DNA of 45,072 nt from a virus (taxonomy: Duplodnaviria > Heunggongvirae > Uroviricota > Caudoviricetes), in IMG/VR virus record IMGVR_UViG_3300009514_000009; one strand, 5' to 3'. Shown one piece after another: positions 9,368 to 45,072 of the stretch; within the stretch, counting starts at the first letter, position 1, and every line of letters starts with the position of its first letter. Position numbers and translations under genes: made by a program. The notes beneath the pieces are model-generated. The model was not told the DNA's origin. It did no database searches and worked only from the letters and a program-made list of their open reading frames with translations.

Positions 9368-9371
9368 CACG

Positions 9372-10495: not shown

Positions 10496-10848
10496 TCCCT
10501 CTCCTCGCCGCGCAGCTTGGACCACTCGTCGTCGGTCAGCTCACGCCACTTGCCGTCGAACTCCACGTCGTACTCCTCTGGGCCGTTGGGCGACGAAGGG
10601 TACGTCACCCCTCGGATGTACCCCTCCCACGCCCAGATGCCGTGGTCGGGGTTGTCGCCTTGGCCATGCTCAAACACATCGTTCGCCCCGAGCATCCCCT
10701 CGACGATCTCGCGGATGATCCACGGGCTGGCAGCAAGAATCGCCACCTCGGTCGTCACTGCGCTGAACGCGACGATGGCCGTCTGGAGAGACTGGGGCTC
10801 CGTTGCCTGCTTGTCGTCGAACAAGCGGGATAGGTCGATAGGGGCCAT
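10492..10848 (-). CDS. hypothetical protein, 118 aa
   Basis: Co-oriented in a tightly packed run; acidic C-terminus. Confidence 0.7.
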   Translation of the reverse strand: MAPIDLSRLFDDKQATEPQSLQTAIVAFSAVTTEVAILAASPWIIREIVEGMLGANDVFEHGQGDNPDHGIWAWEGYIRGVTYPSSPNGPEEYDVEFDGKWRELTDDEWSKLRGEERE

Positions 10849-10851
10849 GTG

Positions 10852-12024
10852 TCAGTCCTTGGCGGGCACGATGCAGCCGTGCCCTTCGATGTTGAAGCCG
10901 TTGCGCATGTCCTCGGTCAGCTCGCGCTGGTTGTCCCGCACTGTACCCGGCGGGGCGTAGGGCACGGTCGGGAGGCCAGGCACCTGCTCATGGAAGTGCA
11001 GCACAGGCGTGATGAGGTCGAGGAACTGCTGGGCGTACCGGATGAGCAGCACGGCATTCAGCGTCGGCTTGTTCCAGCCCTTCGGCACTGTGACCGTCCG
11101 CCGCTTGGGGTCCCACGCCGTCACCAGAGTGGAGTCCTCCGCGGTGAACACCGCCCCCTTCTCCCGAGGAGAGACGAGCCAGCCCACCCGGCCCCCGCTG
11201 ATGGTCGTCGGGATCGCCACGGCCCCGAACACCCGGTCGCCCTCAAAGGGCAGGAACCGGCTGCGATGCTGCTTGACGAGTCGGTCGAAGGTGCCCTTGG
11301 CGTTCCAGCAGTCCGCCAAGTACAGCATCCCCTCCCGCTCGTCATAGGTCGTCGAGTAGTGCTCGTCCTCGACCACCGCCCGCAGGGCGTCGAACAACCC
11401 GTCGAAGTCGTTGTCGTACTCGTGGACGCTGCGGTCCTTGTAGATGAGCAGCTTGCGCTTGAGCCCATGCCCCATGTCGTTGGCGAGGACCACGTTGCAG
11501 CGGCTCTTGAGCAGCACCCCGTAGGCCGCCTCCACCAGCTCCTCCTCCGTCGAGCCGATGAGCATCTTGCAGCCGATGAGCGTGAGCTTCGGGTTCTCCC
11601 GCTTCATCTCCTCGATCACCCGAGGGGCGAGGATGAACGGGACTTGGATCATGTCGCCGACGTGGTAGCCCGCGGTCGGCATCTTGCCGCAGTAGGGCAC
11701 CTTCGGAATCCAGTTCACCACGGCTGCCGCCATGATGGCGGCGTCCTGCCGCGGAGCCTCCGCCTTGCACAGCTCGCGGTAGCTGTCGAAGCCGTCGTGA
11801 CGAAGCAGCCGGATGGCGGGCATACGGATGCCCGGAGCAGGCCGATAGTCGCCGACATCGGGGTTCTTCCCCATCGTGTCGGGGATCAGCAGCGTGACTT
11901 GGTGCTCCAAGGAGGCCAAGTAGCCTGCGAGCTTGCAGGCCCAGATGCCTCGGACCCGGTTGCCCACGAGCTTGTTGTCGTCGAGGCGGCCATAGACCTG
12001 CCCCGCCGTGATGAGCACCTTCAT
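10852..12024 (-). CDS. CoaB-like (phosphopantothenate-cysteine ligase fold) protein with an extra C-terminal domain
   Basis: KVLITAG, D-x-x-x-x-x-GN, AIMAAAV, LIGCK, VVLAND motifs; ATGA coupling to SDR. Confidence 0.75.
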   Translation of the reverse strand: MKVLITAGQVYGRLDDNKLVGNRVRGIWACKLAGYLASLEHQVTLLIPDTMGKNPDVGDYRPAPGIRMPAIRLLRHDGFDSYRELCKAEAPRQDAAIMAAAVVNWIPKVPYCGKMPTAGYHVGDMIQVPFILAPRVIEEMKRENPKLTLIGCKMLIGSTEEELVEAAYGVLLKSRCNVVLANDMGHGLKRKLLIYKDRSVHEYDNDFDGLFDALRAVVEDEHYSTTYDEREGMLYLADCWNAKGTFDRLVKQHRSRFLPFEGDRVFGAVAIPTTISGGRVGWLVSPREKGAVFTAEDSTLVTAWDPKRRTVTVPKGWNKPTLNAVLLIRYAQQFLDLITPVLHFHEQVPGLPTVPYAPPGTVRDNQRELTEDMRNGFNIEGHGCIVPAKD

Positions 12025-12809
12025 TCCTTCACTCCTTCGATCAGCCGAATCCAAAGCCTTGCGCTGGTCGTCATCGCAGTCTTGGCCCACCACCGGGGGT
12101 GGTACTCCCCCTCGCGGGACACTGGCAGCAGACGAGCCCCCATGCCGGGATAGGACACCGGCCTACGGGCCGCGGCGTCCTTCAAGATGCCCGTGACGAA
12201 CCACTGCGGGCCGGGGCCGAACTGCACGAGAGGCTTGGACCAGCCCGTGCCGCCTGCCACCCGACCCCAGATGCCTGAGTAGATGAAGCCCATCGAGATC
12301 AGCATCAGGTTGATGCCGCTGAACGAGTAGACCTCCCGGCTCTCCCGCCACCACGCGACCATCTCCCGCTTGACCGTCTGGTAGACCCGCAGGCCGGGCA
12401 CGTCATCCATGCCCGCCGAGGCAGAGGTGACCACTGCCACGGTCCCACCGCTCATCCGCGGGCGGAGCCCCTCCAGCAGAGCCACCGGCCCTGTGAAGTC
12501 CGTCTGCCGCAACGCCTCCTCGTCCTCGACGCGGGACCCGAGGATGGCGTTGCCCGCCAGATGGAACACGTAGTCCACACGGGGTGGCAGCGCGGTCAGC
12601 ACCCACTTGATGTCTTCCGGGTCAGCGAAGTCGCAGCGGTAAGGCTGGGCTCCCCGGTTGCCGAGCTGCCGCAACTTGTCCCGGTTGCGGCCAAGGACAT
12701 GCACACTGGCCCCAAGGGACAGCAGCTCGTAGGCCACGGCCTCCCCGTTGCCTGAAGTCGCCCCAGTCACGACGCAGACGGCCCCCTCATACTCGCGTCG
12801 CAGGTTCAC
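12021..12809 (-). CDS. short-chain dehydrogenase/reductase
   Basis: VVTGATSGNG (TGxxxGxG), FHLAG, YQTVK (YxxxK). Confidence 0.85.
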   Translation of the reverse strand: MNLRREYEGAVCVVTGATSGNGEAVAYELLSLGASVHVLGRNRDKLRQLGNRGAQPYRCDFADPEDIKWVLTALPPRVDYVFHLAGNAILGSRVEDEEALRQTDFTGPVALLEGLRPRMSGGTVAVVTSASAGMDDVPGLRVYQTVKREMVAWWRESREVYSFSGINLMLISMGFIYSGIWGRVAGGTGWSKPLVQFGPGPQWFVTGILKDAAARRPVSYPGMGARLLPVSREGEYHPRWWAKTAMTTSARLWIRLIEGVKE

Positions 12810-13459
12810 TTCGCCCTCCGGGTGCAGGTCCACGTCGAGGATCTACCGCGGTAGATCACGTCAACGTCGAACCAGACGGCCAACTGGTCATGCAACTCGT
12901 GATGCTTGTGCCAGTGGAAGCGGGTCACGTCGTACCCGAGGCCGGGGCTCGCTTGCAGGTGGTACACCGTGCGCCCGAACCAGCCGGACGCCTCGATGAA
13001 TCGCCTGCCCTCGTACTTGTACGTCTTGAGCGACCAGCGGGGCTTCTCAAACAGGTTGAAGACCAGCTTGCCGCCGGGCTTCTTCAGCAGACCCCAGACC
13101 CAGTTGAGCATGAAGCGGTGCCACCCGAGGTAGGCCGCCGCCTGTCGGCAGATGATGAGGTCGAAGCTGCCGAGGATCTCGGGCTGTTGGTCGCCGAACG
13201 TCTGACCCAGATGGTTGGCGTCGCCCGCGTACTGCGTGATGCGCTCGTCCGGGCAGCGGGGGTTGAGGTCGAGCAGGGTGATCGTCGAAGGGTCCGCCCC
13301 TCGGCGGAGGCACTCCAGCGAGATCGCCCCCGTGCCACCACAGAGGTCGAGCACCTTCATGCCCGGCGTGTAGCCAGCATGGTCCAGCAGCTTGCCGGGA
13401 TTGTTCAGCCAGCGGGCGTACAGGGCATCGTACTTGTCGGTCGTGCAGCTTCTGTCCAC
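12806..13459 (-). CDS. class I SAM-dependent methyltransferase
   Basis: VLDLCGGTG, LLDLN, FDLIIC; GTG 13459 follows RBS GGAGG. Confidence 0.85.
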   Translation of the reverse strand: MDRSCTTDKYDALYARWLNNPGKLLDHAGYTPGMKVLDLCGGTGAISLECLRRGADPSTITLLDLNPRCPDERITQYAGDANHLGQTFGDQQPEILGSFDLIICRQAAAYLGWHRFMLNWVWGLLKKPGGKLVFNLFEKPRWSLKTYKYEGRRFIEASGWFGRTVYHLQASPGLGYDVTRFHWHKHHELHDQLAVWFDVDVIYRGRSSTWTCTRRAK

Positions 13460-13473
13460 TTGCACCTCCGACC

Positions 13474-13504
13474 CAACTACTCGCCACGTCCCCGGTTTGA
13501 GCCC
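13474..13504 (-). promoter_or_regulatory. conserved bipartite motif copy 6
   Basis: GGGCTCAA-N15-AGTAGTTG. Confidence 0.75.
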
Positions 13505-13545
13505 CGTGTTGGGCGGGTAGGGTGGGCAACCGATGGAGGTGACGC

Positions 13546-14487
13546 ATGACGCACTTGCAAGTCATCAAAGGTGGCGAAGTCATGGGCATGGGCCTCGCGG
13601 ACTACGTGTGGCTCGGCGATGACGGTGAGATCAACTTCAAGAAGAAGAGCATCCTGATCGCCAAGAACGAGAAGGGTGACCCCGCCCCGCTGGCCGACCG
13701 CTGGACCTTCGCCGACTGCGACTGCGACTGCGACTGCGGGGGCATCTGCTCCGGTGAGTCGAAGGCCCGCATCCTCGTGCCGTGCTTCTACCTGCCCGAC
13801 CCCACTCGCCCGCAGCCGAACTACATCGTGTTGTGCGAGGTGCGTGACGAGCAGGACCACTGCACTGGGACCAACGAAAGAGCCAAACTCCGCAAGGCCC
13901 TCAAGGACCGCGGCCCCACGGCCAACCTCGTCTGGTTCGGCTTTGAGCAGGACTACGAGCACAGCGAGGCCGGGGAGCAGGAGAGCGACGCCTTTGAAGC
14001 CCGCCGGTTCGGGGCCGCAGAGAGGCACATCGGGGCCTGCTTCGATGCCGGGCTCTTGTTCCACAGCGCGTGGAACCCGCCGGGCAACTCGACGTGGGAC
14101 TTCAAGGTCGGCTACCGGGGCTTCCCGCAAGACCTCGACCCGGACCCGCCCAACGCCCTGATCGTCGCGGATCACCTGATCATCGCCCGCTACCTCATGG
14201 AGAAGATCTGCGGCAGCCAAGGCCTGCGGCCCTTCTGGGCGGACCTCTCCGTGTTCCTCTCGACCCCCGCCTTGCGCGACCTCGACTCCGACCAGAAGGC
14301 GGAGTCGGAGCACATCGAATGGGCCGTGTCAGGGCTGGGCGACCCCCGGATTCTGCCCCATCCAACGCGGGGTGGATTCCAGTGCATCGAGGTCAGCCGG
14401 GAGGAGCCCGGCGACCCCTATCGTGTGGCTCTCGACGTGCTGGACGCCGTGTGGCCCTTGGAAGAACCTCGTACCTCAGAGGAGTAG
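13546..14487 (+). CDS. glutamine synthetase (GSII-like) fold protein, degenerate
   Basis: DYVWLG, YLPDP...IVLCEV, WFGFEQDY, HIGACFDAG, WDFKVG, ADHLIIARYLMEKI, DPY. Confidence 0.7.
   Translation: MTHLQVIKGGEVMGMGLADYVWLGDDGEINFKKKSILIAKNEKGDPAPLADRWTFADCDCDCDCGGICSGESKARILVPCFYLPDPTRPQPNYIVLCEVRDEQDHCTGTNERAKLRKALKDRGPTANLVWFGFEQDYEHSEAGEQESDAFEARRFGAAERHIGACFDAGLLFHSAWNPPGNSTWDFKVGYRGFPQDLDPDPPNALIVADHLIIARYLMEKICGSQGLRPFWADLSVFLSTPALRDLDSDQKAESEHIEWAVSGLGDPRILPHPTRGGFQCIEVSREEPGDPYRVALDVLDAVWPLEEPRTSEE
13714..13737 (+). repeat. hexamer tandem repeat (GACTGC)4 encoding DCDCDCDC
   Basis: Read directly from sequence. Confidence 0.95.
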
Positions 14488-14489
14488 CT

Positions 14490-15212
14490 GTGCCAAAACC
14501 ACGCCGCAAGGTCATCGTCGTCGAAGGGCTCATCGGATCGGGCAAGACCACCCTGAGCAGGGAACTGGGGATCGCCCTCGGCGAAAAGACCCTCACCCTG
14601 TTCGAGCCCGATGAGAAGGGCGAGGGGGGCGGGGGCAATCCCTACCTCGCGGACTACTACGCCGACCCCAAGCGGTGGAGCTTCGTGCTGCAAGTCCACC
14701 AGCTTCAGGCCCGCTACCGGATGCACCTCCAAGCCCAGTGGCACGCCATGCAGGGCTTCGGACATGCCGTCCTCGACCGCAGCTACTTCGGCGATACCGC
14801 CTTCGCCCGGCTCCAGCTCAAGGGCGGGTTGATGTCGGAACGAGAGTTCGCCACCTACTCCAGCATCTACCAAGCCATGACCGCCGGAGTCCTCCTCCCC
14901 TCGGTCTGCGTGCGGGTGCTCGCTCAGCCGGAGATCTGCGAGCGACGAGTTGCCAGCCGCATGGAGAAGGAGACGGGGCGGAAGTGCGAACAGGCCATCG
15001 ACCTCGACTACCTGCGTGGACTGGAGACAGAGATCGACCACATGGTCGCCGTGCTTCGCGGCATGGGCGTTTGCGTGATTGATATGGCTTGGGACGTGGA
15101 TCGGGACTCCCCCGAGATGCGGCGTAGTGCCGTCGAGGCCCTCGCCTCACGGATCGTCGCCCACACCCCGCCCGACTTCTTCCTCGACATGCACCGCCGA
15201 ACCCTCCCCTGA
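14490..15212 (+). CDS. deoxynucleoside kinase family protein
   Basis: VEGLIGSGKTT P-loop, FEP, YYADPKRWSF, LDRSYFGD; GTG start. Confidence 0.9.
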   Translation: MPKPRRKVIVVEGLIGSGKTTLSRELGIALGEKTLTLFEPDEKGEGGGGNPYLADYYADPKRWSFVLQVHQLQARYRMHLQAQWHAMQGFGHAVLDRSYFGDTAFARLQLKGGLMSEREFATYSSIYQAMTAGVLLPSVCVRVLAQPEICERRVASRMEKETGRKCEQAIDLDYLRGLETEIDHMVAVLRGMGVCVIDMAWDVDRDSPEMRRSAVEALASRIVAHTPPDFFLDMHRRTLP

Positions 15213-15637
15213 AACCCCCCGAGAAACTCACCGATTCTCCGTGAACCCGGAAAGCCCTTGCCCAGCATAGGTTTTCTGGACCCTGCGGGACATTTTCCCC
15301 CCTCGCTTTGGGTTCGGAGGGGGGAAACTGCCCCGCACCCGAGAATCTGGATTCCCGACCGGCAAGAAACTCCCCTTCTTGGCCCTTGGGATTCTCTTGA
15401 CGGTGCTCTAAGCGGTTTTTCGCAGCATAGAGGCCCACTTCAGCCGTTTCTTCCGGGTGCTTTTCAGATTCTCCGGGCGGGAGAATCTGGCAAGAATCAG
15501 GACGTGAGAACCGCGAGTTCAACCTGAGAGGGTCGGGGGCAACCACCCCCTTTCTCGGCCAAAGGGGGTCTACCCCCCCGAGAAATGCGGGGTAGAGGTC
15601 CGCACCCAACGCGAAGGCCCCGAGATTCGGGGTGAGA
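15213..15637. other. non-coding gap between convergent gene blocks with GAGAATC repeats
   Basis: GAGAATC/GATTCTC at 15233, 15341, 15390, 15467, 15481; A/T tracts and G/C runs; no credible ORF. Confidence 0.6.
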
Positions 15638-16066
15638 TCAGCGGGGGGTTTGAACGGTAGATGTGGCGAGCCGCATGTCATCCAACCCAGTGAGCAGGAG
15701 GATCGCGGTTCCGCTGGTCGGGTCGTAGGAGGCCTCGATGAACACCCCATCGCCGTACGCGGTGCCCTCTGGTTGGGGGCCTGCCAGCTCGGTCACGGTG
15801 GCCTCGTCCGGCCCCACGTTCACCCCGTGCTTGGTTAGCAGGGCCAGCAGATGGTCTGCGGCCTCCACCAGCATGGAAGGCGCAACGACCATCGTGACGT
15901 TGGGGATGCCCTTGCCCGTGACTGGGTCCGTCAGCATACAGCCCTCGTGAGGGCCACCGACCTTGGACACGCCGTCACCCGAATCGGTGGTGCGGAGGTT
16001 GTTGCTGTTGAGCAGCCGGACGACCTTGCGGATGCCGGGGTCGATCTCGTCGTAGGGGATGATCAT
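15638..16066 (-). CDS. hypothetical protein, 142 aa
   Basis: MIIPYDEIDPGIRKVVRLLN...; ATGA coupling. Confidence 0.7.
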   Translation of the reverse strand: MIIPYDEIDPGIRKVVRLLNSNNLRTTDSGDGVSKVGGPHEGCMLTDPVTGKGIPNVTMVVAPSMLVEAADHLLALLTKHGVNVGPDEATVTELAGPQPEGTAYGDGVFIEASYDPTSGTAILLLTGLDDMRLATSTVQTPR

Positions 16067-16587
16067 GTTCGCTTGTTCCCGTGGCGGTAGGCGCGGGTCA
16101 GGTTGTAGGCGTGCTTCTGCTCCATGATGGCCTGAAGGTCGATGCCAGCCCACTCGCAGAAGTCGAGGATGCGGATGATCACGTCCGCCAGCTCGGTGGG
16201 CACGCCCTCCGGCTTGTTCGGCTTCTCCGGGTCGAAGTACGTCTCGGTGACCTCGTGCCCGTTGCGGTACTCCTCGTAGGCCTCGGCGACCTCGGAGGTG
16301 AACAACATGAAGATGTCGCCGATGGCCCGCGGCTTGTCCCACCAGCCCTTGTCCTTGGCGTACTGGTGGATGGCCTTCGCCCACCCATTGATGGTCTGCG
16401 GGTGGATGGCCTTCGCCCACCCATTGATGGTCTGCGGGGGGCTGGCCGCCTCCGGCTCTGTTCCACCATCCGGCCAGATGTGGCCGTACTCGTTGTTGAT
16501 GGAGATGAGCAGGCGACGGAGCGGGTGGTCCTCCGCCATGTCGTCGCTGCGGGCGGCAAGTTCACGAGCTGCGTCAATGTCGATCAT
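16063..16587 (-). CDS. MazG-like all-alpha NTP pyrophosphohydrolase
   Basis: SEVAEAYEEYR, ELADVIIRILDF, KHAYNLTRAYRHG. Confidence 0.9.
   Translation of the reverse strand: MIDIDAARELAARSDDMAEDHPLRRLLISINNEYGHIWPDGGTEPEAASPPQTINGWAKAIHPQTINGWAKAIHQYAKDKGWWDKPRAIGDIFMLFTSEVAEAYEEYRNGHEVTETYFDPEKPNKPEGVPTELADVIIRILDFCEWAGIDLQAIMEQKHAYNLTRAYRHGNKRT
16365..16438. repeat. perfect 36-bp tandem duplication, in frame (PQTINGWAKAIH x2)
   Basis: Units 16366-16401 and 16402-16437 are identical. Confidence 0.95.
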
Positions 16588-16671
16588 GGGTCCTCACACC
16601 GGGTCCGGTTCATCTGCGGGATCATCGTCGTCGTACATGGAACCCATACCCGCCGAAGTCCGGGGATGGAC

Positions 16672-17211
16672 CTACCGTCCTACCTTCCAGCACCCCCGGC
16701 AGCGGGCCTCGTACTGCGACGCCCCCACCTCGACCTGCGACGCCTTGCCCGTGAGGTGGTAGCTCCGGCTGGCAGGCTCCCCGCACTGGATGCAGACCGC
16801 GGACAGCTTCGTGACCTCCTCCGCGATCACCATCAGGTGCGGGATGGGGCCAAATGGCTTGGCATCGGAGTCCTGATCGAGCCCAGCGACGATCACCCGG
16901 ACGCCGATGTTGGCCAAGTCCTCGCACAGCTCGACCAGACCGGGGTGGAAGAACTGCCCCTCGTCGATGCCCACGACTTCAAGCCCCCGAACGCGCTCAC
17001 GCAACTCGGCAACCGACCCTGCCGGGGTCGCGTCGAAAGTGGCCCCGGTGTGGCAGCCGATCTTCACCGTGTCGTAGCGGTCGTCTGAAGCGTGCTTGAA
17101 CGCCCGGACGGACTTCTTGCCGATCTTGGCCCGCCGGAGACGACGAACCAGCTCCTCCGACTTGCCGGAGAACATGCAGCCTGTGATGACCTCTATACGA
17201 CCGTGGGGCAT
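16672..17211 (-). CDS. tdk: thymidine kinase (TK1-like)
   Basis: GCMFSGKSEEL, GIDEGQFF, VAGLDQD, CIQCG...YEARCRGC. Confidence 0.95.
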   Translation of the reverse strand: MPHGRIEVITGCMFSGKSEELVRRLRRAKIGKKSVRAFKHASDDRYDTVKIGCHTGATFDATPAGSVAELRERVRGLEVVGIDEGQFFHPGLVELCEDLANIGVRVIVAGLDQDSDAKPFGPIPHLMVIAEEVTKLSAVCIQCGEPASRSYHLTGKASQVEVGASQYEARCRGCWKVGR

Positions 17212-28872: not shown

Positions 28873-31800
28873 TCACAGCCCTTGATGGTGGGCAAGAACG
28901 TAGAACTGTGTGTCATTGACGAGGATCTCCTCATCGGTCCAGCCCTTCAACACCGTGCCATCCGGCAGACGCAGGCGGAGCTTCCGCGTGCCGCCGTTGC
29001 GGCACTCCTTGATGATACGCGCCAACTTCACGCAGGTGATCGTCGTGAGAGGCGAGCGCAGGACGAACTCGTAGGCCCCGCCCGCGGTGTTGCCCCGAGG
29101 CGGGTCGAACTTCGGCACGTCAGTGAGCTGCGGCGGCTGGAACTCGACCGTAGCCCTCTCAGCCACCAGAGGTTCGTCAGGGAAGGGTGCCCGCTCCGGC
29201 TCAACTTCAGCAGGTGGGGCCACCGGGGCGGGTGGTGCCTCCGAAGTCTCTGCCGGAGCAGGTGCCGGCTCTGGAGTGGTGGGTTCAGTAGCAGCATCAC
29301 CAGTCGCCCCGAGGTTCTTGAACACCCGCCGCAGGGTCAGCGGGAAGCTGTGGGGCATGGCCTCCCATGCCGCTTGCTTGGCCGGGTAGGCCGCGCTGTC
29401 CTCTTGGAATGCGGAAGGTGAGTCGTAGTCCCGCAGCTCAGGTTTGCGGGGCGGCTTGACCTTTTTGTCACCATCGAACCGGACCTCGCGGTTGAGCATA
29501 GAGCTGAGGTCCCAGTTGACCGTCCAGTCCTGCCCGATCTCCGTGTCCGTCGTGAGCGGAATGGGCCAACGCTTCGCCATGATGAACGGGTTGCTGGTCA
29601 TGATCGGCACGATGTCGGCGATGGCCTCCTCGATGAGGTCGTCGCGGATCTCGAAGACCAGCTCGTCGTGCATCGAGGCGATGAGCCTCACCGTGTCGAG
29701 CCAGCCCTTGTTCTTGCAGTGCCTGTAGACCAACGCCATCGCGATCTTCATCACGTCGGCACCGCTGTTGTGAACGATCACGCCATCGCAGACGAAAGCG
29801 TGTGCGCAATCACCCACCTCGATGTCGTACATCTCGACAGGAATGCCCGTGTCATCCACATCTGCGACCTGCTCGTAGTCGAACTGAAGCAGGCTGGTGA
29901 GGATGGCAGGCACCTCATCTGGAGGCATCTTGGCGAGATACCGCAAGCATTGTGGCTTGCTCCCGGAGCCAGCCTTGAGGCGGAGCACTGCGGACTTCTC
30001 CGCACGAGGCAGATCCACATAGATGCTGCTCTTGTAGAGCACATCCCCAATGCGCTCGATGAGGTCTGGAGGAAGGGTGTGCCATTGACCCGTCCAGGGG
30101 TTTGCCTCGATGGCCACCAAACGGTCGGACTTCTTTGGCACCAGGAACCCCACCCGATCACGGTACGCCACCCGGTCTTTGATGGACACCCGCTTACTGT
30201 CTAGCCGGACGGTGGACCGGATGCCGAGGCTGCGAAGGAGCTTGTGCGTGTCCATCAGCAAGTCGGGGTTCGTGCTTCGCACATCCACGGCTTCCGCCAC
30301 GTTCACGCACCCGTCAGCACTGAAATAGCCCCGCAAGAAGGCCGCTCGGTGTTGAGCCGATTGCCCCCAGACCGCCTCGGGCACCCGCTTGGTGTAGGTG
30401 TTCCAGTCGTCCAGGCCCAACGTGCGACAGAACTCCCGGAAAGCTGTATTCCAGAAACAGACCTGCCACATGGGTCGGCGGTCATCCTCCCCGTGGCGGA
30501 CCTTCTCCGTCACGGTAGCCGTCAGCCCCATGGTGGCAAAGCGGTCCGCGTAAAAGCGGGCCTGTTGAGCAGCACCAGGCCCCCCGACGTGGATGATGAC
30601 CCCATCGTCTCGAATCGACCCATCCCCGATAACAAGTCCCAGAAGCTCCCAAAGGGCTTCATGATTGCCCTTGAAATGGAACCCCTTCTTGTTGTGGGCC
30701 GCTGTCCCATCGTCCTCGTGGTGCAGCACCGCTTCTGGGAGGTCTACGCCCACTGCATCTGTGACGACCCACGACTCCGGGGTCAAATCCTCTTGCCGCA
30801 CCCAGACCAGCACCCCTTTCTCGTACACTCGGAACCGATGGTCTGGACTGGTACGAAGAGTGAGTCCCGAAGTCAGGGTGGTGTGTATCAGTCGCTTGGG
30901 ACCAGACGGGAACGCTCGACCCCGTACCCAGCGAGTGCCCGTCCACACGTCGAAGTTTTGCCCAGAAAGGTCTTCTATACGACGAACACCGAGACTGGTG
31001 GGCACCCTGCTGTCCCCGTGGAGGCAGCCCTGAATCGGTCCGTTGACGCTGTTGCGCTCGGCCTTGGACCGGAACCCGCCGTCCGCCGACCAGATGTCCG
31101 GCACGGGGTAGATGCGCCCGAAGCCGGTCAGCACGAAGCCGTGCTTGTTGGCGAACTTGTGCTGGCCCTGCCACCACTGCTTCAGCCCGGTGTACGTCCC
31201 GTCGAACTGGTTCTTGATCCGCCAGCCCTCGTTCTTGTCCACATTGCAGGCCCGGACGACTGCGTTGCCACCGCCGCCGTAGCACAGGGCGAAGTTGACG
31301 CCCTTGGCGTTGCCGCGAAGCTGTTTCCACTCCGGGCGGGTCAGGGCATCGTCGCCGTAGATGCTCAGCGCAGTCAGCGTGTGCAGGTCGCCGATCTTGT
31401 CGCTGCCGCAGTTGGGGCAGCGGGTCGGCGGCGGCTTGGGGGTCGTGCTGCCATCCCCTCGCGGGAAGGTGCGGGTGCAGCCCGAGCAGCGGAAGAACTC
31501 CTCCAGCCACTTGATCTCGCGACTCAGGTTGGTGACGAGTCGCAGCTCCTCCCCGGCGAAGTCGATGGCGACGATCTTGTAGCCGGGACGGGCCACGATG
31601 CACTCGCGCAGCCGGGTCATGCAGGCCGGGCGACGGGGATCGTAGGTGGCGGGCATCGACTGGAGGTTAATGGGCGGCCAGCCGGGGATGCGCTTGGTCT
31701 TGGCCGAGGCTAGCTCACGCTCCTTCGCTGGGGTGCTGAAGCGGCCCGTGTCCACCTTGTGCGCGTTGAAGTTGATGCGCATGGTGAAGTCGTTGGGGTC

Positions 31801-33129
31801 CACATCCTCCAACATCGGGAACAGGTAGCTGCTCAAGGCCTTGTTCGTCTCGCGGAACCGCTTGATGAGGCCCATGAACGGGAACCGGGCCTCCGCCGCC
31901 TTGATCACGCCTTCCAGCACATCCTTGCTGGTCTTCACCTGATTGGACTTCTCGGTGCGGACGAGGCCGGGGACGCCCATCTCGTCGAACATCATGCCGA
32001 GCTGGACCGGGGCATTCACGTCGTAGATGAGGGGCCACTTCTGCCCTCGCGTCTCGGCTTTGCCCACCGGGTTGGGGTAGAAGCGATCCTCGTGCGACTT
32101 GGCCACCGTGATCTGGTCCGGCAGCAGGTTGACCGGGTTGTCGTGCTCCCAGTTGTCCCGCAGCACCTTGTAGTAGCCCGGCATCACATCGCGACCAAGG
32201 ATCTCGGTCGCCGCCCGGTAGACCTCCATGATGGAGTCGAACCACTCCTGCTGGCCGAGCTTGATCAGCTCCATGACCTTCTCGGGGCTGGTCGGGATGA
32301 GGTTGCGCTCCATCCACCGACACGCGATCACGCAGCCCTTCTCGATGCGGTAGATCTGCTTCTGGCTGAACCCGTGCTTGGGGTTGGTGACCTCGGGCAA
32401 GAGCAGGTCGCAGAGCAGGTAGGTGCAGATGGCGTCGGAGCAGCCGTAGACCAATGGCCCCTTCTCCGAGGGGTCGAGCAACGAGTAGTCGTACTGCGTC
32501 TTCGGGTGGTCCGCCGGGAACAGGTCTTCCAGCTCCAACATCTTCATGCCGAGGCCGGGGCCACCACAGGCATGGGTGTTGTCCGCGTCCACCGGAGCCT
32601 CGGACAGGGCTTTCAGCCCCTTGCGACGTGACCGACTGTGCCGCAGGTAGGCGAGGATGAGGGTGTCCTCCCACCGCTTGGTGGCGTCCCACTTGCCGAA
32701 GGGCTCGCCGCCGTGGAACTCCAAGAACTCCATGTCGAACTTGCCGTTGTGGAAGATGGCGACGACCTGATCGGCGTCCACCGCGGCCATCAGGCGGCGG
32801 AACTCTGGCTCGAAGATCGACCACGGGACGTTGTGCTCGGCCCCCGCTTTGTGTCGAAGCGGGATGTACCAGCCCGTGATGCCGTCACCGGACAAGCAGA
32901 CCCCGACGATCTTGTCCTTGGTAGTCCCGGTGGACTTGTCCACCCGGTTGTCGATGCCCGTCGTCTCAAGGTCGAGGGCGAACCGCCCGTTGACCCCGTT
33001 GATGCAGGCGTCGATGCACTCGGTGATGTTATCCGGCGTGACGAGGACGAACTTGAACGCCCCCGACTCCATCCACGGCTGGTAGACGATTTCCTTCCAG
33101 TCGCTGAGGATGTCGAAAAGGTCAAGCAT
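28873..33129 (-). CDS. polA: family A DNA polymerase (3'-5' exonuclease plus polymerase) containing an intein
   Basis: ALDLETTG, FHNGKFD, YGCSD (exo); VDTGRFS, NLQSMP, AIDFAGEELR, RGNAKGVNFALCYG, NGPIQG|SGAD, MHDELVFE. Confidence 0.95.
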   Translation of the reverse strand: MLDLFDILSDWKEIVYQPWMESGAFKFVLVTPDNITECIDACINGVNGRFALDLETTGIDNRVDKSTGTTKDKIVGVCLSGDGITGWYIPLRHKAGAEHNVPWSIFEPEFRRLMAAVDADQVVAIFHNGKFDMEFLEFHGGEPFGKWDATKRWEDTLILAYLRHSRSRRKGLKALSEAPVDADNTHACGGPGLGMKMLELEDLFPADHPKTQYDYSLLDPSEKGPLVYGCSDAICTYLLCDLLLPEVTNPKHGFSQKQIYRIEKGCVIACRWMERNLIPTSPEKVMELIKLGQQEWFDSIMEVYRAATEILGRDVMPGYYKVLRDNWEHDNPVNLLPDQITVAKSHEDRFYPNPVGKAETRGQKWPLIYDVNAPVQLGMMFDEMGVPGLVRTEKSNQVKTSKDVLEGVIKAAEARFPFMGLIKRFRETNKALSSYLFPMLEDVDPNDFTMRINFNAHKVDTGRFSTPAKERELASAKTKRIPGWPPINLQSMPATYDPRRPACMTRLRECIVARPGYKIVAIDFAGEELRLVTNLSREIKWLEEFFRCSGCTRTFPRGDGSTTPKPPPTRCPNCGSDKIGDLHTLTALSIYGDDALTRPEWKQLRGNAKGVNFALCYGGGGNAVVRACNVDKNEGWRIKNQFDGTYTGLKQWWQGQHKFANKHGFVLTGFGRIYPVPDIWSADGGFRSKAERNSVNGPIQGCLHGDSRVPTSLGVRRIEDLSGQNFDVWTGTRWVRGRAFPSGPKRLIHTTLTSGLTLRTSPDHRFRVYEKGVLVWVRQEDLTPESWVVTDAVGVDLPEAVLHHEDDGTAAHNKKGFHFKGNHEALWELLGLVIGDGSIRDDGVIIHVGGPGAAQQARFYADRFATMGLTATVTEKVRHGEDDRRPMWQVCFWNTAFREFCRTLGLDDWNTYTKRVPEAVWGQSAQHRAAFLRGYFSADGCVNVAEAVDVRSTNPDLLMDTHKLLRSLGIRSTVRLDSKRVSIKDRVAYRDRVGFLVPKKSDRLVAIEANPWTGQWHTLPPDLIERIGDVLYKSSIYVDLPRAEKSAVLRLKAGSGSKPQCLRYLAKMPPDEVPAILTSLLQFDYEQVADVDDTGIPVEMYDIEVGDCAHAFVCDGVIVHNSGADVMKIAMALVYRHCKNKGWLDTVRLIASMHDELVFEIRDDLIEEAIADIVPIMTSNPFIMAKRWPIPLTTDTEIGQDWTVNWDLSSMLNREVRFDGDKKVKPPRKPELRDYDSPSAFQEDSAAYPAKQAAWEAMPHSFPLTLRRVFKNLGATGDAATEPTTPEPAPAPAETSEAPPAPVAPPAEVEPERAPFPDEPLVAERATVEFQPPQLTDVPKFDPPRGNTAGGAYEFVLRSPLTTITCVKLARIIKECRNGGTRKLRLRLPDGTVLKGWTDEEILVNDTQFYVLAHHQGL
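29767..31026 (-). mobile_element. LAGLIDADG-containing intein in the DNA polymerase (420 aa)
   Basis: Begins CLHGDSRV after PIQG; LLGLVIGDGS and FLRGYFSADG; ends VIVHN followed by Ser. Confidence 0.92.
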
Positions 33130-33149
33130 GATGCGCTCCGTCGTGCGTC

Positions 33150-33647
33150 CTACACTCCTACCCCGCCCACCACGAACTCGTCCCCCGCCACGATGACAAC
33201 GTACCGACCTTCTGCCCACGCAAGGGTCACGATGGACATCGCCCGGACCGCTCTGTCCTCGGGGGTGCTCTCGCCTGCTTCAGGGCTCCAGCACTCGGGC
33301 AGTTTCTTGCTCCGGGGCTGGCACCGCTTGGCGTCGTACATCACGCAGTCGCCTGCGACGGAGCACCTGTCGTGGGGGCTCGGGATGCGGATGAGCTGGT
33401 GCTTGGGTTCTGGTCCGATCTGCTCCATCAGCGGTCGCATGTGACCGTGCAGGGCGTGGCTGAACGCCTCCCCGGTCACGACCGGAAGGAGCGCGGCGAA
33501 CGCGGGCTCCTTCCGCAGGGGAGCCAGCTCGCCCCACGGGTCGATGATGAGGGTGTCGCCCTCCCGCCGCTCAGAGGGCACCGGGCGGAGGATCTGGATG
33601 ATCCCGCCCAAGGACCCCGCGTCGAGGTTGAACCGTTGGAGCTTCAC
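33150..33647 (-). CDS. hypothetical protein with Cys cluster
   Basis: GTGA coupling with upstream gene. Confidence 0.7.
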   Translation of the reverse strand: MKLQRFNLDAGSLGGIIQILRPVPSERREGDTLIIDPWGELAPLRKEPAFAALLPVVTGEAFSHALHGHMRPLMEQIGPEPKHQLIRIPSPHDRCSVAGDCVMYDAKRCQPRSKKLPECWSPEAGESTPEDRAVRAMSIVTLAWAEGRYVVIVAGDEFVVGGVGV

Positions 33648-39747: not shown

Positions 39748-40896
39748 CTAACTGGGGAAGTTGAGCTTGTTGTCGCGGGCATTGTGGTTGATCGCCTCCT
39801 CGATCTTGTCCCGCAGGTAGGGCGCGGTGTGGTTCGTCGGGCTGATGCTGCTCTCCAGCCGCCCGAGGACCCGCATGAGGAACGGTAGACGCCGATACAC
39901 CGCATCCTCCGTGTTCGCCCGGACGAGGCTGATCAGGATGCGGATCATGGACATCGACCAGAAGCTCTGGAGGACCCTGCGCTGGGGGTTGTTCATCACC
40001 TGCACCCAGACGGCATCCTCTCGCTCGGCATCGAACTTCTGCATCCTGACCGCCAGGATCTTGCCGACATCGCTGAGGCGACCCCCGGTGCCGTTCAGAA
40101 CATCATGCGACAGGTGAGCAGCCATCTGGACCGCAGCTACCAGCCGTTCGACCTCTCGGAAAGCCGTGATGCTTTCCTCGGATTTGAACAACTTGACCAC
40201 CAGCCCGATGTTGTAGCCAGACGCCGAACAGGGCTGCCCCGTCTTCAGGCGCTCCTTGGCCGAGGGGACCCCGTTGCCACGGCTGCCCAGCAGCCACCCG
40301 GCCAGAATCTCGGTCCACGTCAGGCGCAGCGGCCCTTTGCCACCCTTCACCTTGTTGAAGACCGGCTTCAGCACATGCGAAGGCTCGTTCTGGGTCAACT
40401 GGTAGACCGGCGAGAGGTAGCGGTACAGCGCGATCTTGTCCTGTGCGGAGGTGTTGCGCCGGAAGGAGTGAAACTCGAACAGGGCCACCATCTGCTCCGC
40501 TGTGACCGCCGTGTAGGTCACCACGCGGAAGGTCTTGGACTGCTTATTGGGGTCCATGGTCAAGGCAAGAAGCCGCGTCTGACCATCGGGCACGTAGAAG
40601 TTCAGGGGGTCCTCCACCGGACGGACCCGAACCAGCTCCGAGGTGTGGTGCCCGGCGACCCGATCAAAGCTCTCCAAGAGCTTCACAGCGGCCTTCTTGT
40701 TGAGCAGGCGCTGCTGCTCCACTCCGATGATGTACTTGTCCACACACGGGTTCGGTCTGGGTCCATCCACGGAGAGAACATCGGACCCCGAGATGGTCAC
40801 CATGTCCGTAGACACGGCCTCCGGCGGGATGGTGTTCAGCACGGAAGCCCACTGCTGGATGTCCTTCGCGGGTTGTCTAGCTGTTATCGTACTCAT
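39748..40896 (-). CDS. DGQHR/ParB-superfamily-like protein
   Basis: FYVPDGQTRLLAL...FNxxR-like FHSFRR; RBS AGGAGG. Confidence 0.55.
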   Translation of the reverse strand: MSTITARQPAKDIQQWASVLNTIPPEAVSTDMVTISGSDVLSVDGPRPNPCVDKYIIGVEQQRLLNKKAAVKLLESFDRVAGHHTSELVRVRPVEDPLNFYVPDGQTRLLALTMDPNKQSKTFRVVTYTAVTAEQMVALFEFHSFRRNTSAQDKIALYRYLSPVYQLTQNEPSHVLKPVFNKVKGGKGPLRLTWTEILAGWLLGSRGNGVPSAKERLKTGQPCSASGYNIGLVVKLFKSEESITAFREVERLVAAVQMAAHLSHDVLNGTGGRLSDVGKILAVRMQKFDAEREDAVWVQVMNNPQRRVLQSFWSMSMIRILISLVRANTEDAVYRRLPFLMRVLGRLESSISPTNHTAPYLRDKIEEAINHNARDNKLNFPS

Positions 40897-40923
40897 GCTT
40901 CCTCCTGTCGTATGAAGCACAAG

Positions 40924-41072: not shown

Positions 41073-41921
41073 TCACCCGTGTGAGGTGGAAATAGGGTAT
41101 TCCTTGCGGCCAACGATGAAGGGTTCCCAACCGGGCTTGAGGGCCGTAGCCCAGCCGTCGAACTTGGTAGCTTCAGGCGTTGCAGGCCCCGTGGTGTCCC
41201 ACGACACCGAGGCCACGCTCCTCCCCGGCTGCGACCCCGAAAGTGTGCCGAAGCCCCCACCGCCGGGGTTTCCATAGTGGAAGGCGGCCCCAGCCTTCCC
41301 CCTGCCGGTCACAGGGCGCTCGCCTGCCTTGCCCAAGTGCTTGTCGATGGCCTTGCTCGTGTTCAGCGCCTTTGGGAACCCCGACCCGTAAGCCCACGCC
41401 TCAAGGCTGTGCTCCGGGTCGAGCAAGAATCCAGCTTCCTCCATCGCCGCGCACATCCGGTGGTTCATCCGCGTCGCCCCGAAGACCTTGAGGATGCCGC
41501 CCGCAGAGAGCACCCGGTAGCACTCGGTCAGCCAGAGCACGCACCACTGCTGGAACTTCTGCCGGTCGCTCACCGTCTGCTGGGCGGAATCGAACTCGGG
41601 CTCATCGCACTCGCACTTGCCCGGCCCACCCTTCCATGTCCTCTGCCGTAGCCCACAGGCCTGACAGGTCGGGTTGCGGCTCGACGTGAACGAGGGGGCC
41701 GGGTGGCGTTCCCCACCATCGGTGAAGCCGTGCTCCGCGAACCCATACTTCCACGGGGCGTCCCAGTCCTTGTTCATGAACTCCAAGCCTGATCAGCCGT
41801 AGGGCGGATCTGTGATGACCGCACCGACCGAGGCGTCTTCGAGTTCACGAAGAACCTCGGAGCTGTCGCCAAGCCGGAGGCGGATCACATGCGCCCTACG
41901 GCTGTGCTCTCCTTCACCCAT
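41073..41921 (-). pseudogene. N4/N6 DNA methyltransferase N-half (DPPY) with an in-frame TGA
   Basis: RBS AGGAG, ATG 41921; LRLGDS...VITDPPYG*SGLEFMNKDWD...WAYGSGFPK...GWATALKPGWEPFIVGRK; no FxGxG. Confidence 0.8.
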
Positions 41922-41981
41922 GAGGTGCTCCTGTGGTTGAACGTCAATGTCCCTCATGCGGGACGACCTACGAGGCAGACT

Positions 41982-42287
41982 CTACCCGCTGGGATGGCAA
42001 CGCGAACCGGGAGCCACCACAAGGGGCTCGGGGTCCTTGTCGTAGATCGGCAGAGCCCCGTCAGGGATCTGTTGAACAAGGAAGGTCTTGCGCCCCACTG
42101 CGGCGTAGTCCAACCGTGCCCGGAGGGGTGCGGCCATCGAGGCCGCGAGCTTCTGGCGTCCACCCGCAGAGTTCAGCAGGTTGGCAAGGGCTTGCCGAGG
42201 GTCTTCGACCGGCTCGGGTGGCGGCTGCGGCTTGACGTAGACGTGGACAACGGGGTCCTCGTCCCAAAACCATGCGGGAAGGGGCAC
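41982..42287 (-). CDS. small protein resembling the N-terminus of a giant-phage major capsid protein
   Basis: GRQKLAASMAAPLRARLDYAAVGRKTFLVQQIPDGALPIYDKDP; family recalled from memory, not searched. Confidence 0.55.
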   Translation of the reverse strand: MPLPAWFWDEDPVVHVYVKPQPPPEPVEDPRQALANLLNSAGGRQKLAASMAAPLRARLDYAAVGRKTFLVQQIPDGALPIYDKDPEPLVVAPGSRCHPSG

Positions 42288-42290
42288 GAG

Positions 42291-42584
42291 CTACCTCGGA
42301 TTGGTGCAGGCTGGAAGCTCGCTGCAAGCCCCCATCTGCATCACGCACGTCGGGTTGAGGGGGTGCCCACTCTGCTGGGTGTCTACGCAGAACTTCGTGC
42401 AGCTCGTCCCGTCCTCCAAGGGCTCACCCTCGGGGCAGCCAAGCTGGCGGAGCTTCACACAGGCAGCGTCGCACTTGTCCGTGTCGGAGGGCTCGATGAC
42501 GATGGGCGGGGGCCTCGTCTGGCAGGTCGCCCCCATCATCAGTGACATCACCACAAGGGCAAGAATCATGCGGAGGAACTTCAT
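42291..42584 (-). CDS. secreted Cys-rich protein or lipoprotein
   Basis: Signal peptide ending GATC; six further Cys. Confidence 0.75.
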   Translation of the reverse strand: MKFLRMILALVVMSLMMGATCQTRPPPIVIEPSDTDKCDAACVKLRQLGCPEGEPLEDGTSCTKFCVDTQQSGHPLNPTCVMQMGACSELPACTNPR

Positions 42585-43369
42585 GCGGTCTGCTCCTTGT
42601 ACGTCTCGAAGCCCGCTTGAGGGACCCAGAGATCCTTGCTCACCGGATGGGCGATGACCGACGGGTCCATCAGGTAGAACCCGTCATCACCCCAGCCGGT
42701 GCCCCACGAGTTCTCGCCGATGAACAGCCCGTCCTGCCAACCCACGAGCACCGTAGCGTGGCGGCCCGTGGCGTCATCATCGGGGACCACCTTGAGCGTC
42801 TGCCCCTTCTTGTAGCCGCTCCACGACTTGTCCACGTTGGTCCCGAACACCACCGGGTTGCCCGCTTGCAGGGCCTCGATGACCATCTCCACTCGGGACA
42901 GACCCGTCGCCCGGATCTTGTAGAAGCTCTTGATCTTCGACACGTAGGCCTTCCGCATGGCGTCCCAGCTCGGGGCCTCGTAGATGCGGGCGGTGTCCCA
43001 CGGATGATCCACCTCCGGCGGGACCCCGAATCGCCGCATCGCGTCGAAGGCGTGCGAGATGTACGTCCCGTCGTCCTTGTCCGTCTCCTTGGGGAACATC
43101 AGGTTGCGGGCCATCCAGTAGACGGCCAGCCGGGAGAGGTCGATGTGGGCCTCGTGGCCACGCTCTTGGATGCGCTTGATTTCCAGCGCCTTGACCGTGG
43201 CCTGCGCGACGCACGAGCTGGTGCTGCGCTGGTTGTGCCGTGGGCTGGTCAGTGGTCGAAGGTCCACATCCCCCGCGGAGATCTGCACCATCTTGGCCCG
43301 CAGCTTGTCCTCAAAGCCCCAGTGCCTCGGGCTGTCAGGTTCTTCGCGGAAGCCTTGGAGGTTGGGCAT
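42581..43369 (-). CDS. papain-like cysteine peptidase (C1A)
   Basis: NQRSTSSCVAQA (Gln/Cys), RHATVLVGW, ENSWGTGWGDDGF. Confidence 0.92.
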   Translation of the reverse strand: MPNLQGFREEPDSPRHWGFEDKLRAKMVQISAGDVDLRPLTSPRHNQRSTSSCVAQATVKALEIKRIQERGHEAHIDLSRLAVYWMARNLMFPKETDKDDGTYISHAFDAMRRFGVPPEVDHPWDTARIYEAPSWDAMRKAYVSKIKSFYKIRATGLSRVEMVIEALQAGNPVVFGTNVDKSWSGYKKGQTLKVVPDDDATGRHATVLVGWQDGLFIGENSWGTGWGDDGFYLMDPSVIAHPVSKDLWVPQAGFETYKEQTA

Positions 43370-43425
43370 CGTGGGCTCCTGTTGTTCGTCCTCTGCTACC
43401 GTACCCGCATAGCCCCACTACCGGA

Positions 43426-44247
43426 TCAGGGTTTCGTGCCAACGATGAAGGGCTCCCAACCGGGCTTGAGTGCAGTCGCCCAGCCGTCGAACCGAGCAGC
43501 CTCCTCACTCGCCGCCTCGGTTACACGGTAAGCATTGTCCCACCGCACACCATCCTGCTGGTAGCCAAAGTCACCACCGACTTTGGCTACGGTCTTGGCC
43601 TTGCCACCATCCGATGAATGGCGGTGCTCCCGGCTCGGGATGGCTTGCTGGATGTAGTCGTCGAAGCGGTTGTCGAGCTGGAGCACGCTCTTGAGCTTGG
43701 ACCATTCCTCCGGGGTGGGCAGGTACGCCTCAGAAGCTCGTTGCCCCCCTCGACCCTCGACCCATGAGTACCGGGTGGTGCCCCCGAACACTTGCCGGTC
43801 CACCGAAGCCTTGGACAGCCCCAAGGCTTCTCGTTGCTCCCGCAAGTGCGCCTGAATCTCGGCCTCGACTGCCGAATCGCACCCGAAGTGCTTGTCCACA
43901 GCCTTGGAAGTATTCAGGTACTTCGGAAACCCGCTCCCGTAGGCCCATGCCTCAAGGCTCTGCTCGGGGTCGAGGAAGAATCCGACCTCCTCCATCGCCG
44001 CTGCGAGGCGGTGGAACGTGCGTGTCGCCGAGAAGACCTTGATGATGCCGCCAGATGGGAGGACACCAAAGCACGCCTCCAGCCACTTGCGATGCCACTC
44101 AGCGTTCTCTCCACCCTCCCCTTCGGAGTCCCAAGTCTTGCCCATGAAGGAGATCAGGTATGGGGGGTCGCAGACCACCGCCCCAACACCCTCCAGCGTG
44201 GCGATGATCTCAAAGCTGTCACCCAGCCGGAGGGTGATGGTCGGCAT
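43426..44247 (-). CDS. N4/N6 DNA methyltransferase N-half (DPPY) with inserted HTH
   Basis: VVCDPPY...WAYGSGFPK...LREQREALGLSKASV...GWATALKPGWEPFIVGTKP*; no FxGxG. Confidence 0.8.
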   Translation of the reverse strand: MPTITLRLGDSFEIIATLEGVGAVVCDPPYLISFMGKTWDSEGEGGENAEWHRKWLEACFGVLPSGGIIKVFSATRTFHRLAAAMEEVGFFLDPEQSLEAWAYGSGFPKYLNTSKAVDKHFGCDSAVEAEIQAHLREQREALGLSKASVDRQVFGGTTRYSWVEGRGGQRASEAYLPTPEEWSKLKSVLQLDNRFDDYIQQAIPSREHRHSSDGGKAKTVAKVGGDFGYQQDGVRWDNAYRVTEAASEEAARFDGWATALKPGWEPFIVGTKP

Positions 44248-45072
44248 CAGTCGTCACCCAGCAGGTCGAACAGGCCCAACTCAGGTGCAGCTTCCACCTC
44301 GACCGGCTCCAGATCCGACACGATGTCCGCCCCCTGCCACCCGACGTGAGCCCGGTCCCAGTGACGGATGCGGGCCTCGGCGATGGGCAGGTACTCGGGG
44401 TCCCGCTCGATGCCCACGAAGTCGTGACCCGTCATCGTGCAGGCGATGCCCGTCGTCCCTGAGCCCATGAACGGGTCAAGCACCGGGCCTTGGTCCTTTG
44501 GCACGTCGGCGAGCAGCCGCTTCATCAGCTCAATGGGCTTCACGGTATTGTGGCTCATGCCCACAGCCGTCTGGAAGGTGGGATTCCCATTCACGGTGAG
44601 GTTCCACACGTCGCCCTTGTACGGGACCGCCTTGACGTTCTGAACGTAGGACAGGCGGTACACGACACCCTCGTGCTCCATCGTGACGGGCCGAGCGGGT
44701 TTCCGCTTCTGCTGGTTCATGTCCCGCTCGTAGAACCGAATCTGGTAGGACGGCAGGGTGCTCTTGAACTTGCGGGTGCCCACCTTGCCCGGAGCAGCTT
44801 CGTAGCGAAACAGGTTGGCCTTGGTGCCCAGAGCCTCCCCCAACAGTCTCATCTGAGAAGCCAGGTCAGGGGAGACGGTCTTGGCTTGCCGGTAGGTGCG
44901 GACCTTGCCCCCGTCCCCCGCCATGTAGCCGTCGAAGACCGCCTGCCAGACCAATCGGGTTCTCCACCAGATGATGTAGGGCAGCCTCTTGTTCGACGCC
45001 CCGCACGGGGAACCCTCTTGGAACTGCGACCCCACCTCCGGGTCGAAACCGATGATCTGCACCGCCTTGGAG
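44247..45072 (-). CDS. partial beta-class N4/N6 DNA methyltransferase (SAM-binding part) with intein; 5' end outside window
   Basis: HN|TVKPIELMKRLL...VLDPFMGSGTTG...FVGIERD; frame open to the window end. Confidence 0.85.
   Translation of the reverse strand, partial: SKAVQIIGFDPEVGSQFQEGSPCGASNKRLPYIIWWRTRLVWQAVFDGYMAGDGGKVRTYRQAKTVSPDLASQMRLLGEALGTKANLFRYEAAPGKVGTRKFKSTLPSYQIRFYERDMNQQKRKPARPVTMEHEGVVYRLSYVQNVKAVPYKGDVWNLTVNGNPTFQTAVGMSHNTVKPIELMKRLLADVPKDQGPVLDPFMGSGTTGIACTMTGHDFVGIERDPEYLPIAEARIRHWDRAHVGWQGADIVSDLEPVEVEAAPELGLFDLLGDD
44547..45072 (-). mobile_element. C-terminal part of an intein in the DNA methyltransferase
   Basis: FDGYMAGDG (LAGLIDADG-like), VWNLTV...GMSHN followed by Thr. 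Confidence 0.85.

Follow-up and report, generated by a model that had tools for sequence, protein, structure and literature searches.

A candidate split and permuted amino-methyltransferase of phage origin, with one cofactor-binding part and two catalytic half-genes

Can an amino-methyltransferase be encoded in halves, one binding S-adenosylmethionine (SAM) and the other carrying the catalytic motif, with more than one catalytic half available to a single partner? The question is raised by the right end of a 45,072-bp stretch of viral DNA (IMG/VR record IMGVR_UViG_3300009514_000009; the whole stretch is hereafter called the window), where the genes concerned all lie on the minus strand and where, proceeding from the right end, the gene of a SAM-binding part (the C gene) is followed by a catalytic half-gene (N1), by three unrelated small genes (one of them for a papain-like peptidase), and by a second catalytic half (N2), which sits 1.5 kb downstream of N1. 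A preliminary description of this locus had proposed a split and permuted set of one SAM-binding part and two catalytic half-genes; with the corrections given below, this reading is supported by the pairing of the genes, by natural fusions in related DNA, and by a fold model. We assign a probability of about 0.65 to the proposal that the window holds part of the modular split amino-methyltransferase of a large phage, in which the SAM-binding core would be completed in trans by N1, N2 being an alternative half.

Half-genes at the right end of the window

The open reading frame (ORF) of the C gene (44247-45071, minus strand) is open at its 5' end and reads ...VGMSHN and then TVKPIELMKRLL...DPFMGSGTTGIA...; it is composed of two parts. 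A LAGLIDADG-type intein, truncated at the edge of the window, is represented by its C-terminal ~175 residues at 44547-45072 (minus strand; recognised from the translation and from relatives), while the C' segment (44247-44546, minus strand, TGA stop included) contains motifs X (TVKP) and I (DPFMGSGTT) together with the remainder of the SAM-binding half, as identified by PF01555 and by a hidden Markov model (HMM) built for C' (125.7 bits). The PF01555 match of the whole ORF is confined to profile positions 127-220 (E 7e-19), in agreement with the earlier statement that the upstream gene ends with the C-terminal part of a beta-class enzyme (...GMSHN/TVKP...DPFMGSGTT, the slash marking the junction). 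The TGA of the C gene overlaps the ATG of N1 in the sequence TGATG, as noted in the preliminary description. N1 (43426-44247, minus strand) is a stand-alone catalytic half of 273 aa which contains DPPY, motifs V-VIII and a variable insert of ~110 aa, and runs from ...VVCDPPYLISFMGK... to ...ALKPGWEPFIVGTKP-stop; it scores 277.5 bits with the HMM built for the N-halves, and its PF01555 match is limited to profile positions 3-74, as expected of a gene described as encoding the N-half only.

The second N-half is indeed present 1.5 kb further on (41073-41957, minus strand), but it is not a single ORF, being interrupted by an in-frame TGA at 41793-41795. ORF-a (41796-41957, minus strand) encodes the N-terminal strand and motif IV, ends ...AVITDPPYG and aligns with positions 4-37 of the N-half HMM; ORF-b (41073-41786, minus strand) begins LEFMNKDWD, goes on to encode a zinc-ribbon-like Cys4 insert and motifs V-VIII, closes after a short variable region with ALKPGWEPFIVGRK plus nine residues and the stop, and aligns with positions 37-199 of the same HMM (198.9 bits). 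Between DPPYG and LEFM lies a stop-led gap of 9 nt, TGA TCA GGC (TGATCAGGC; 41787-41795, minus strand). Motif IV is thus found in both halves, as VVCDPPY in N1 and VITDPPYG in N2 ORF-a; motif I (FxGxG) is absent from N1 and N2, which end ...VGxK(P), and sits in the upstream gene. Judged by these motifs and profile matches, the half-genes are members of the PF01555 beta-class N6/N4 superfamily, placed outside its standard single-chain architecture.

The two halves differ, as had been described, in two insertions, namely the Cys4 insert after DPPY in N2 and the ~110-aa insert in N1. The short stretch of high identity between them (41110-41163 versus 43439-43492) amounts to 50 of 54 nt (93%). Gene conversion was considered as its origin and rejected: the same codon is used at 15 of the 20 identical residues inside the stretch and at 57 of the 99 elsewhere, so that codon identity in the stretch is not above background, and conservation of the amino acids together with codon bias suffices to account for it.

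Conservation, gene sets and fold of the parts in related DNA

A search with N1 retrieved ~90 stand-alone proteins of 160-345 aa in which DPPY is kept and motif I is lacking; the preliminary description, which had suggested looking for conserved half-genes in relatives, had regarded variable endpoints and relaxed selection as signs that would speak against its proposal. Instead, 74 of the 108 homologues without motif I end 0-1 residue beyond the sequence ...TALKPxWEPxxVGxKP (N1 itself ends GTKP), and the ratio of nonsynonymous to synonymous substitution rates (dN/dS) among N2-type genes from seven sources ranges from 0.11 to 0.42, dS being saturated. Twenty-five columns, D-P-P-Y among them, are invariant in an alignment of 38 N-halves, and N1 is ~36% identical over its full length to mycobacteriophage methylases. 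In two proteins (P0056 and P0082) the place of the ...VGxKP end is taken by a fused Eco29kI-type GIY-YIG nuclease domain (PF09517). Another, P0020, encoded by a 354,807-bp contig, is a chimera whose first ~118 residues are near-identical to N1 and are followed by a short variable region of the N2 type, a sequence arrangement that suggests exchange of cassettes among catalytic halves.

The partner protein has an equally characteristic composition. The translation of the intein contains FDGYMAGDGG and ends in HN followed by Thr (...VGMSHN/TVKP), i.e., the element is inserted inside an HP/TVKP motif; His-Asn followed by a Ser, Thr or Cys nucleophile in a conserved host motif, the C-terminal signature of class 1 inteins, is therefore present. 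Relatives of the intein plus C' fragment (56-82% identity) are 611-850 aa long and have the layout (M)-N'-HP/intein/TVKP-C', with junctions in P0121-P0130 of the form HP/CLHP...SHN/TVKP (HP/CLHPDA...) and with Pfam matches (PF14528, PF13403 or PF14890), Hint or intein domains among them. Here M denotes a recognition module, the RKPL..GTVA.N.L.HGTG.LNID...RWPAN...ASRFF region, which in ordinary single-chain phage methylases lies between N and C', and N' is a segment that lacks motif IV and is homologous to the portion of N with motifs V-VIII (hhalign probability 92.6%, E 4.5e-7). The C-proteins of close relatives often carry one to three M modules, and in the closest ones (P0121-P0124, P0200) the C gene begins with a fused M, a position that for the window's own gene would fall beyond the window; P0200, which is intein-free and reads HPTVKP, has the layout M-N'-C' and is 95% identical to the window over the C-extein. 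DPPY is absent in close intein-bearing relatives (P0125, P0129, P0142 and others), as it is in ~70 intein-free stand-alone C-proteins of 255-300 aa, which share 30 invariant residues; motif IV is missing from all 57 aligned members. When the C-protein alignment was compared with 185,579 species genomes, only the C' part of ordinary methylases was matched and no N'C' protein was found; the gene set therefore looks phage-restricted.

When HMMs for the four parts (N, N', C', M) were run over related DNA, one SAM-binding protein together with one to six catalytic halves was found at nine phage or metagenome loci; N genes adjoin the C-protein gene in L002, L024, L025, L036, L104, L109, L111 and L114, as they do in the window. 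In L002, which belongs to a 205-kb IMG/VR record (G001), the genes run N'C', N, M, thymidine kinase, M; one C-protein, two N and three M are present in the record as a whole. The largest set here is that of L025, where N'C' comes first and N,N,M,N,M,M,N,N,N,M,M,M come after it, tightly packed as separate ORFs on one strand (7998-16700), which gives one C, six N and at least six M. L024 has two N genes and then a fused N-M-N'C'; L036 has N, then M-N'-intein-C', then M; in L104/L105, L109, L110/L111 and L114 a C-protein precedes N and M genes. In these related loci the rule is that several catalytic halves accompany a single C-protein, and the window, with one C and two N, fits it. An exhaustive profile-free search with P0063 moreover recovered natural fusions of the parts, in the forward order N-N'C' or N-M-N'C' (P0063, P0362, P0377, P0379, P0147) and in the order of the window, N'C'-N (P0361, P0363, P0367, P0383, P0365, and P0191 with an intein); the existence of fusions in both orders argues that the parts act together.

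The fold was examined on the permuted natural fusion P0363 (395 aa), for which the alignment was checked so that C-proteins and N-halves sit on their own parts; the forward fusion P0063 was dropped in its favour because its alignment matched N' to N. The AlphaFold2 model of P0363 has a predicted local distance difference test score (pLDDT) of 87.9 and a predicted template modelling score (pTM) of 0.86, and residues ~113-395 (C' then N) superpose as one domain on Trm14 (3tm5_A; Z 19.2, root-mean-square deviation 2.2 Å over 173 residues), Trm11 (6zxv_B; Z 19.1) and TrmN (3tma; Z 17.7), in agreement with Foldseek. The C-protein modelled alone reached a pTM of 0.64 and a best Z of 7.9, its matches covering residues 1-111 (N') only, with no match to a complete methyltransferase; a sequence search of solved structures matched C' only. 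Most economically, the model is read as a single fold that N (strands 4-7) would complete together with C' (motif X and strands 1-3), the split falling at the switch point between strand 1 and strand 4, which is described in the literature as a natural permutation point (PMC7544214). Relative to the beta-class order, C' then N is circularly permuted, and N'-C'-N is the layout to be expected after a tandem duplication with subsequent loss. The preliminary description had referred to active sites built across subunits; one fold completed in trans appears likelier than sites shared by whole subunits.

The stop-led gap in the second half-gene

At the interruption of N2 the window reads GAT CCG CCC TAC GGC TGA TCA GGC TTG GAG TTC ATG, that is, DPPYG-stop-S-G-LEFMNKDWD; the last codon of ORF-a is the GGC at 41796-41798, and the final GGC of the gap repeats this Gly codon. 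In comparison with the uninterrupted relatives L113 and L114 (DPPYGLEFMGKEWD), the window carries nine inserted bases, those of the gap itself. Gaps of 8, 14 or 15 nt are found at exactly the same site in six diverged metagenome relatives (40-80% identity to N2): L104 (TGACTATACCAGGT, 7972-8010), L106 (TGACCATAATAGGT, 506-545), L110 (TGACCATACCTGGA, 1501-1540), L108 (TAGTATACCATAGT, 1836-1875), L107 (TGACTAGC, 1089-1125) and L109 (TAGCCCAAAACAAGC, 1040-1080). ORF-a (...LGD..E.L......AVITDPPYG) is conserved in the six relatives and ORF-b is under purifying selection; the three codons beyond the gap encode LEF (ISF once), with five different Leu codons in use, and the codon immediately before the resumption is always [GA]G[CTA] (GGC, GGT, GGT, GGA, AGT, AGC, AGC in the window and the six relatives), resembling the Gly codon ahead of the stop.

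The codons on either side of the gap form the pattern to be expected at a site of ribosomal hopping. Recurring in six diverged relatives, the stop-led gap points to such a hop or to a further splitting of the gene. Two observations count against the hop: in the 14-nt gaps the downstream frame gives L-T-I-P/I-G, with changes mostly at third positions, and CTGA/TTGA overlaps could act as start/stop coupling, giving two polypeptides; in favour of a hop over re-initiation is the finding that L108 and L109 have no start codon ahead of the ATG. RNA folding at the gap gave nothing better than shuffled sequence (z -1.1 to +2.1) and no conserved hairpin. Plain readthrough or reassignment of the stop codon was rejected for N2: the gaps of 8 and 14 nt in relatives shift the frame, a gap can contain as many as three stops, and tRNA genes are lacking in the window.

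In L104 (6930-9587) the N gene is cut by two antisense genes, one encoding a Zn-finger and a Vsr/DUF559-like domain (7061-7852) and the other a Zn-finger and an HNH domain (8449-9276); the same locus contains an extra truncated copy of ORF-a (6930-7142) and a C-protein (3323-6880) with two inteins. Nuclease genes and an ORF-a copy being found together, the gap may therefore be tied to the traffic of homing endonucleases. To our knowledge, very few natural cases of bypassing are known. As a candidate bypass site, the N2 gap resembles those of T4 gene 60 and Hau3 in that a stop comes directly after a Gly take-off codon, that the codon before the resumption matches it or nearly so, that the gap is short, and that homing endonucleases are found in the surroundings; it differs from them in its 8-15 nt and in the lack of a significant stem-loop. 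Short bypass gaps of 7-10 nt have been proposed, with some experimental support, in the terminase of Streptomyces phage Hau3 (PMC10732093; bioRxiv 10.1101/2022.08.31.505936).

Proposed assembly, rival explanations and known systems

The reading that we prefer would operate as follows. The intein-containing gene would give rise to a cofactor-binding subunit, splicing at HP/...HN/TVKP yielding motif X and strands 1-3 with FxGxG (C'); N1, translated through the TGATG coupling, would supply strands 4-7 with DPPY and dock on C', forming in trans a single seven-stranded Rossmann methyltransferase domain. With the C' gene ahead of the N gene, the parts would follow the ordinary order from motif I to motif IV, the beta-class order being permuted. 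N2, with its other inserts, would confer on the same core another specificity, and the phage DNA could be marked at more than one motif, the purpose being most likely the evasion of restriction. Physical assembly, enzymatic activity, different specificities and an anti-restriction role are all predictions drawn from sequence and from the model, and the interchangeability of the halves suggested in the preliminary description is likewise a putative property. A more elaborate version can be offered tentatively, as something possible though doubtful: a combinatorial kit, in which one SAM scaffold would be served by free recognition modules and by DPPY halves that can replace one another (two in the window, as many as six in relatives), a handful of small genes thereby yielding many specificities, N'C' plus N would represent a living intermediate on the duplication-and-loss path to circular permutation, and N2 would be made only by a hop over the 8-15-nt gap, itself possibly a scar that blocks a homing endonuclease.

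Several observations weigh against a split enzyme completed in trans. The 5' part of the window's C gene lies beyond base 45072 and might hold a DPPY half of its own; the proposed assembly does not account for N'; no M module was detected by the M HMM over the 45-kb window; the structural case is a model of a fused relative, ~50% identical to N1, and not of the window proteins or of a multimer; and N2 requires either a recoding event or an assembly of two polypeptides.

The abundance of selfish elements around these genes (the intein in the C gene, the antisense nucleases that cut the N gene of L104, the in-frame stop of N2) could be taken to mean that the half-genes are decaying remnants, cut by the intein or by homing endonucleases, and that the only functional enzyme is a full-length one encoded elsewhere. 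This is improbable. The half-genes are not debris: their endpoints are precisely conserved, they are under selection (dN/dS as given above, with DPPY among the invariant columns), sets of one C with several N occur repeatedly, and the parts are joined in natural fusions; in addition, a full-length methylase copy was found neither in the window nor in the 205-kb relative G001. A different objection starts from N', which, being a homologue of N fused to C' and containing many invariant residues, could in principle take the place of N; pairs of an active and an eroded subunit are known in this class, e.g., MettL3-MettL14 (PMC7544214). On this view the C-protein would be a self-sufficient SAM-binding protein or enzyme, and the N-halves regulators, competitors or DNA-binding factors. 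We regard this as unlikely, given that none of the aligned C-proteins has motif IV, that a complete methyltransferase domain appears in the model of C' plus N and not in that of the lone C-protein, and that the invariant DPPY of the N-halves makes sense only if they take part in catalysis.

It may also be imagined that the parts are joined into one chain at expression, either by a frameshift at TGATG or by protein trans-splicing, as would accord with the N'C'-N fusions (P0361, P0363, P0191) and with the apparent use of recoding elsewhere in this lineage, at the N2 gap. Such joining is nevertheless very improbable, since TGATG is an ordinary stop/start coupling with no slippery sequence, the C and N genes of relatives are 8-800 nt apart or parted by M genes, the second N-half is 2.3 kb away, and the intein is contiguous, not split.

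The closest described systems are actinophage orphan methylases of the PF01555 family, single-chain enzymes of which some contain an intein (the Dorothy gp75/PopTart gp63 family; Gosselin et al. 2023, PMC9957025). They share with the window genes the superfamily and its motifs (DPPY ... ALKPxWEP ... HPTVKP ... DPFxGSG), the placement of a LAGLIDADG intein within a conserved motif, and a patchy distribution of insertions, and both are presumed to be anti-restriction orphans; however, the actinophage methylases are one polypeptide in the order N-M-C', whereas the set described here consists of separate, permuted genes (N, C' and, in relatives, M) with several N per C, and its relatives' C gene holds a dead N copy. 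No split design is described in PMC9957025 (where 'split' is used of datasets only), nor was the present layout found described in the papers searched on split or two-subunit amino-methyltransferases, including reviews and a classification preprint.

A catalytic domain encoded by two genes is a feature shared with M.AquI and M.EcoHK31I, C5-cytosine methyltransferases whose two gene products must assemble and which are split near the variable region, at motifs VIII-IX; unlike the present set, they have one partner each and are not known to show multiplicity, a degenerate copy or permutation. The window halves carry amino-methyltransferase motifs (DPPY, FxGxG) only, the PCQ and ENV motifs of C5 enzymes being absent, and the resemblance is one of working principle, not of membership. 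The use of one catalytic core with several target-recognition modules is found in the C5 enzymes of Bacillus phages SPR and phi3T and in Type I HsdM/HsdS; in SPR the target-recognition domains are in tandem within one chain and HsdS is a separate specificity subunit, whereas here the catalytic half is multiplied too. In MettL3-MettL14 and the ciliate MTA1-MTA9, a chain with an active DPPW/DPPY is paired with a chain whose motif IV is eroded (PMC7544214). An eroded copy exists in the C-proteins of the window's relatives as well, in the form of N', but each of those subunits is a complete fold, whereas in the present case the division appears to run through the catalytic fold itself, at the strand 1/strand 4 switch point. 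Trm11, Trm14 and TrmN (6zxv, 3tm5, 3tma), the best structural matches of C' plus N (Z 17.7-19.2), likewise have motif I ahead of motif IV; these tRNA enzymes consist of a single chain, their identity is 17-21%, and the likeness is one of fold only.

As to the remainder of the window, the PHROG matches of its large ORFs (DNA polymerase, head proteins) identify it as phage DNA; one window protein is recorded on a contig of 109,072 bp, and a megablast search against cultured phages gave no match. Directly downstream of N2 lies a gene of 390 aa (39748-40920, minus strand) with a PDGQTR motif, which neither Pfam nor PHROG families matched at the thresholds applied. The DNA polymerase (28873-33219, minus strand; 1448 aa) is covered by PHROG matches at residues 62-731 and 1148-1238 only, and the ~400 residues without a match might perhaps be another intein. 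Two adjoining ORFs (3621-6029 and 6798-7871, minus strand) match one segment of phrog_30335 and phrog_4660, families of large virion proteins (residues 9-100 and 212-339), and may represent a duplicated or split domain.

Should the parts assemble in the predicted manner, they would constitute a natural amino-methyltransferase split at the strand 1/strand 4 switch point and used as a kit. Direct material would then be at hand for the long-standing circular-permutation model of methyltransferase evolution, since the two gene orders, the two orders of fusion and a degenerate duplicate are all found. Candidate sites of short translational bypassing would gain a new family in the conserved stop-led gap that follows DPPYG, and naturally evolved halves of a split methyltransferase would become available for targeted-methylation tools. 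For the phages themselves, the arrangement, if true, suggests a way in which large phages could cope with many restriction systems at low cost.

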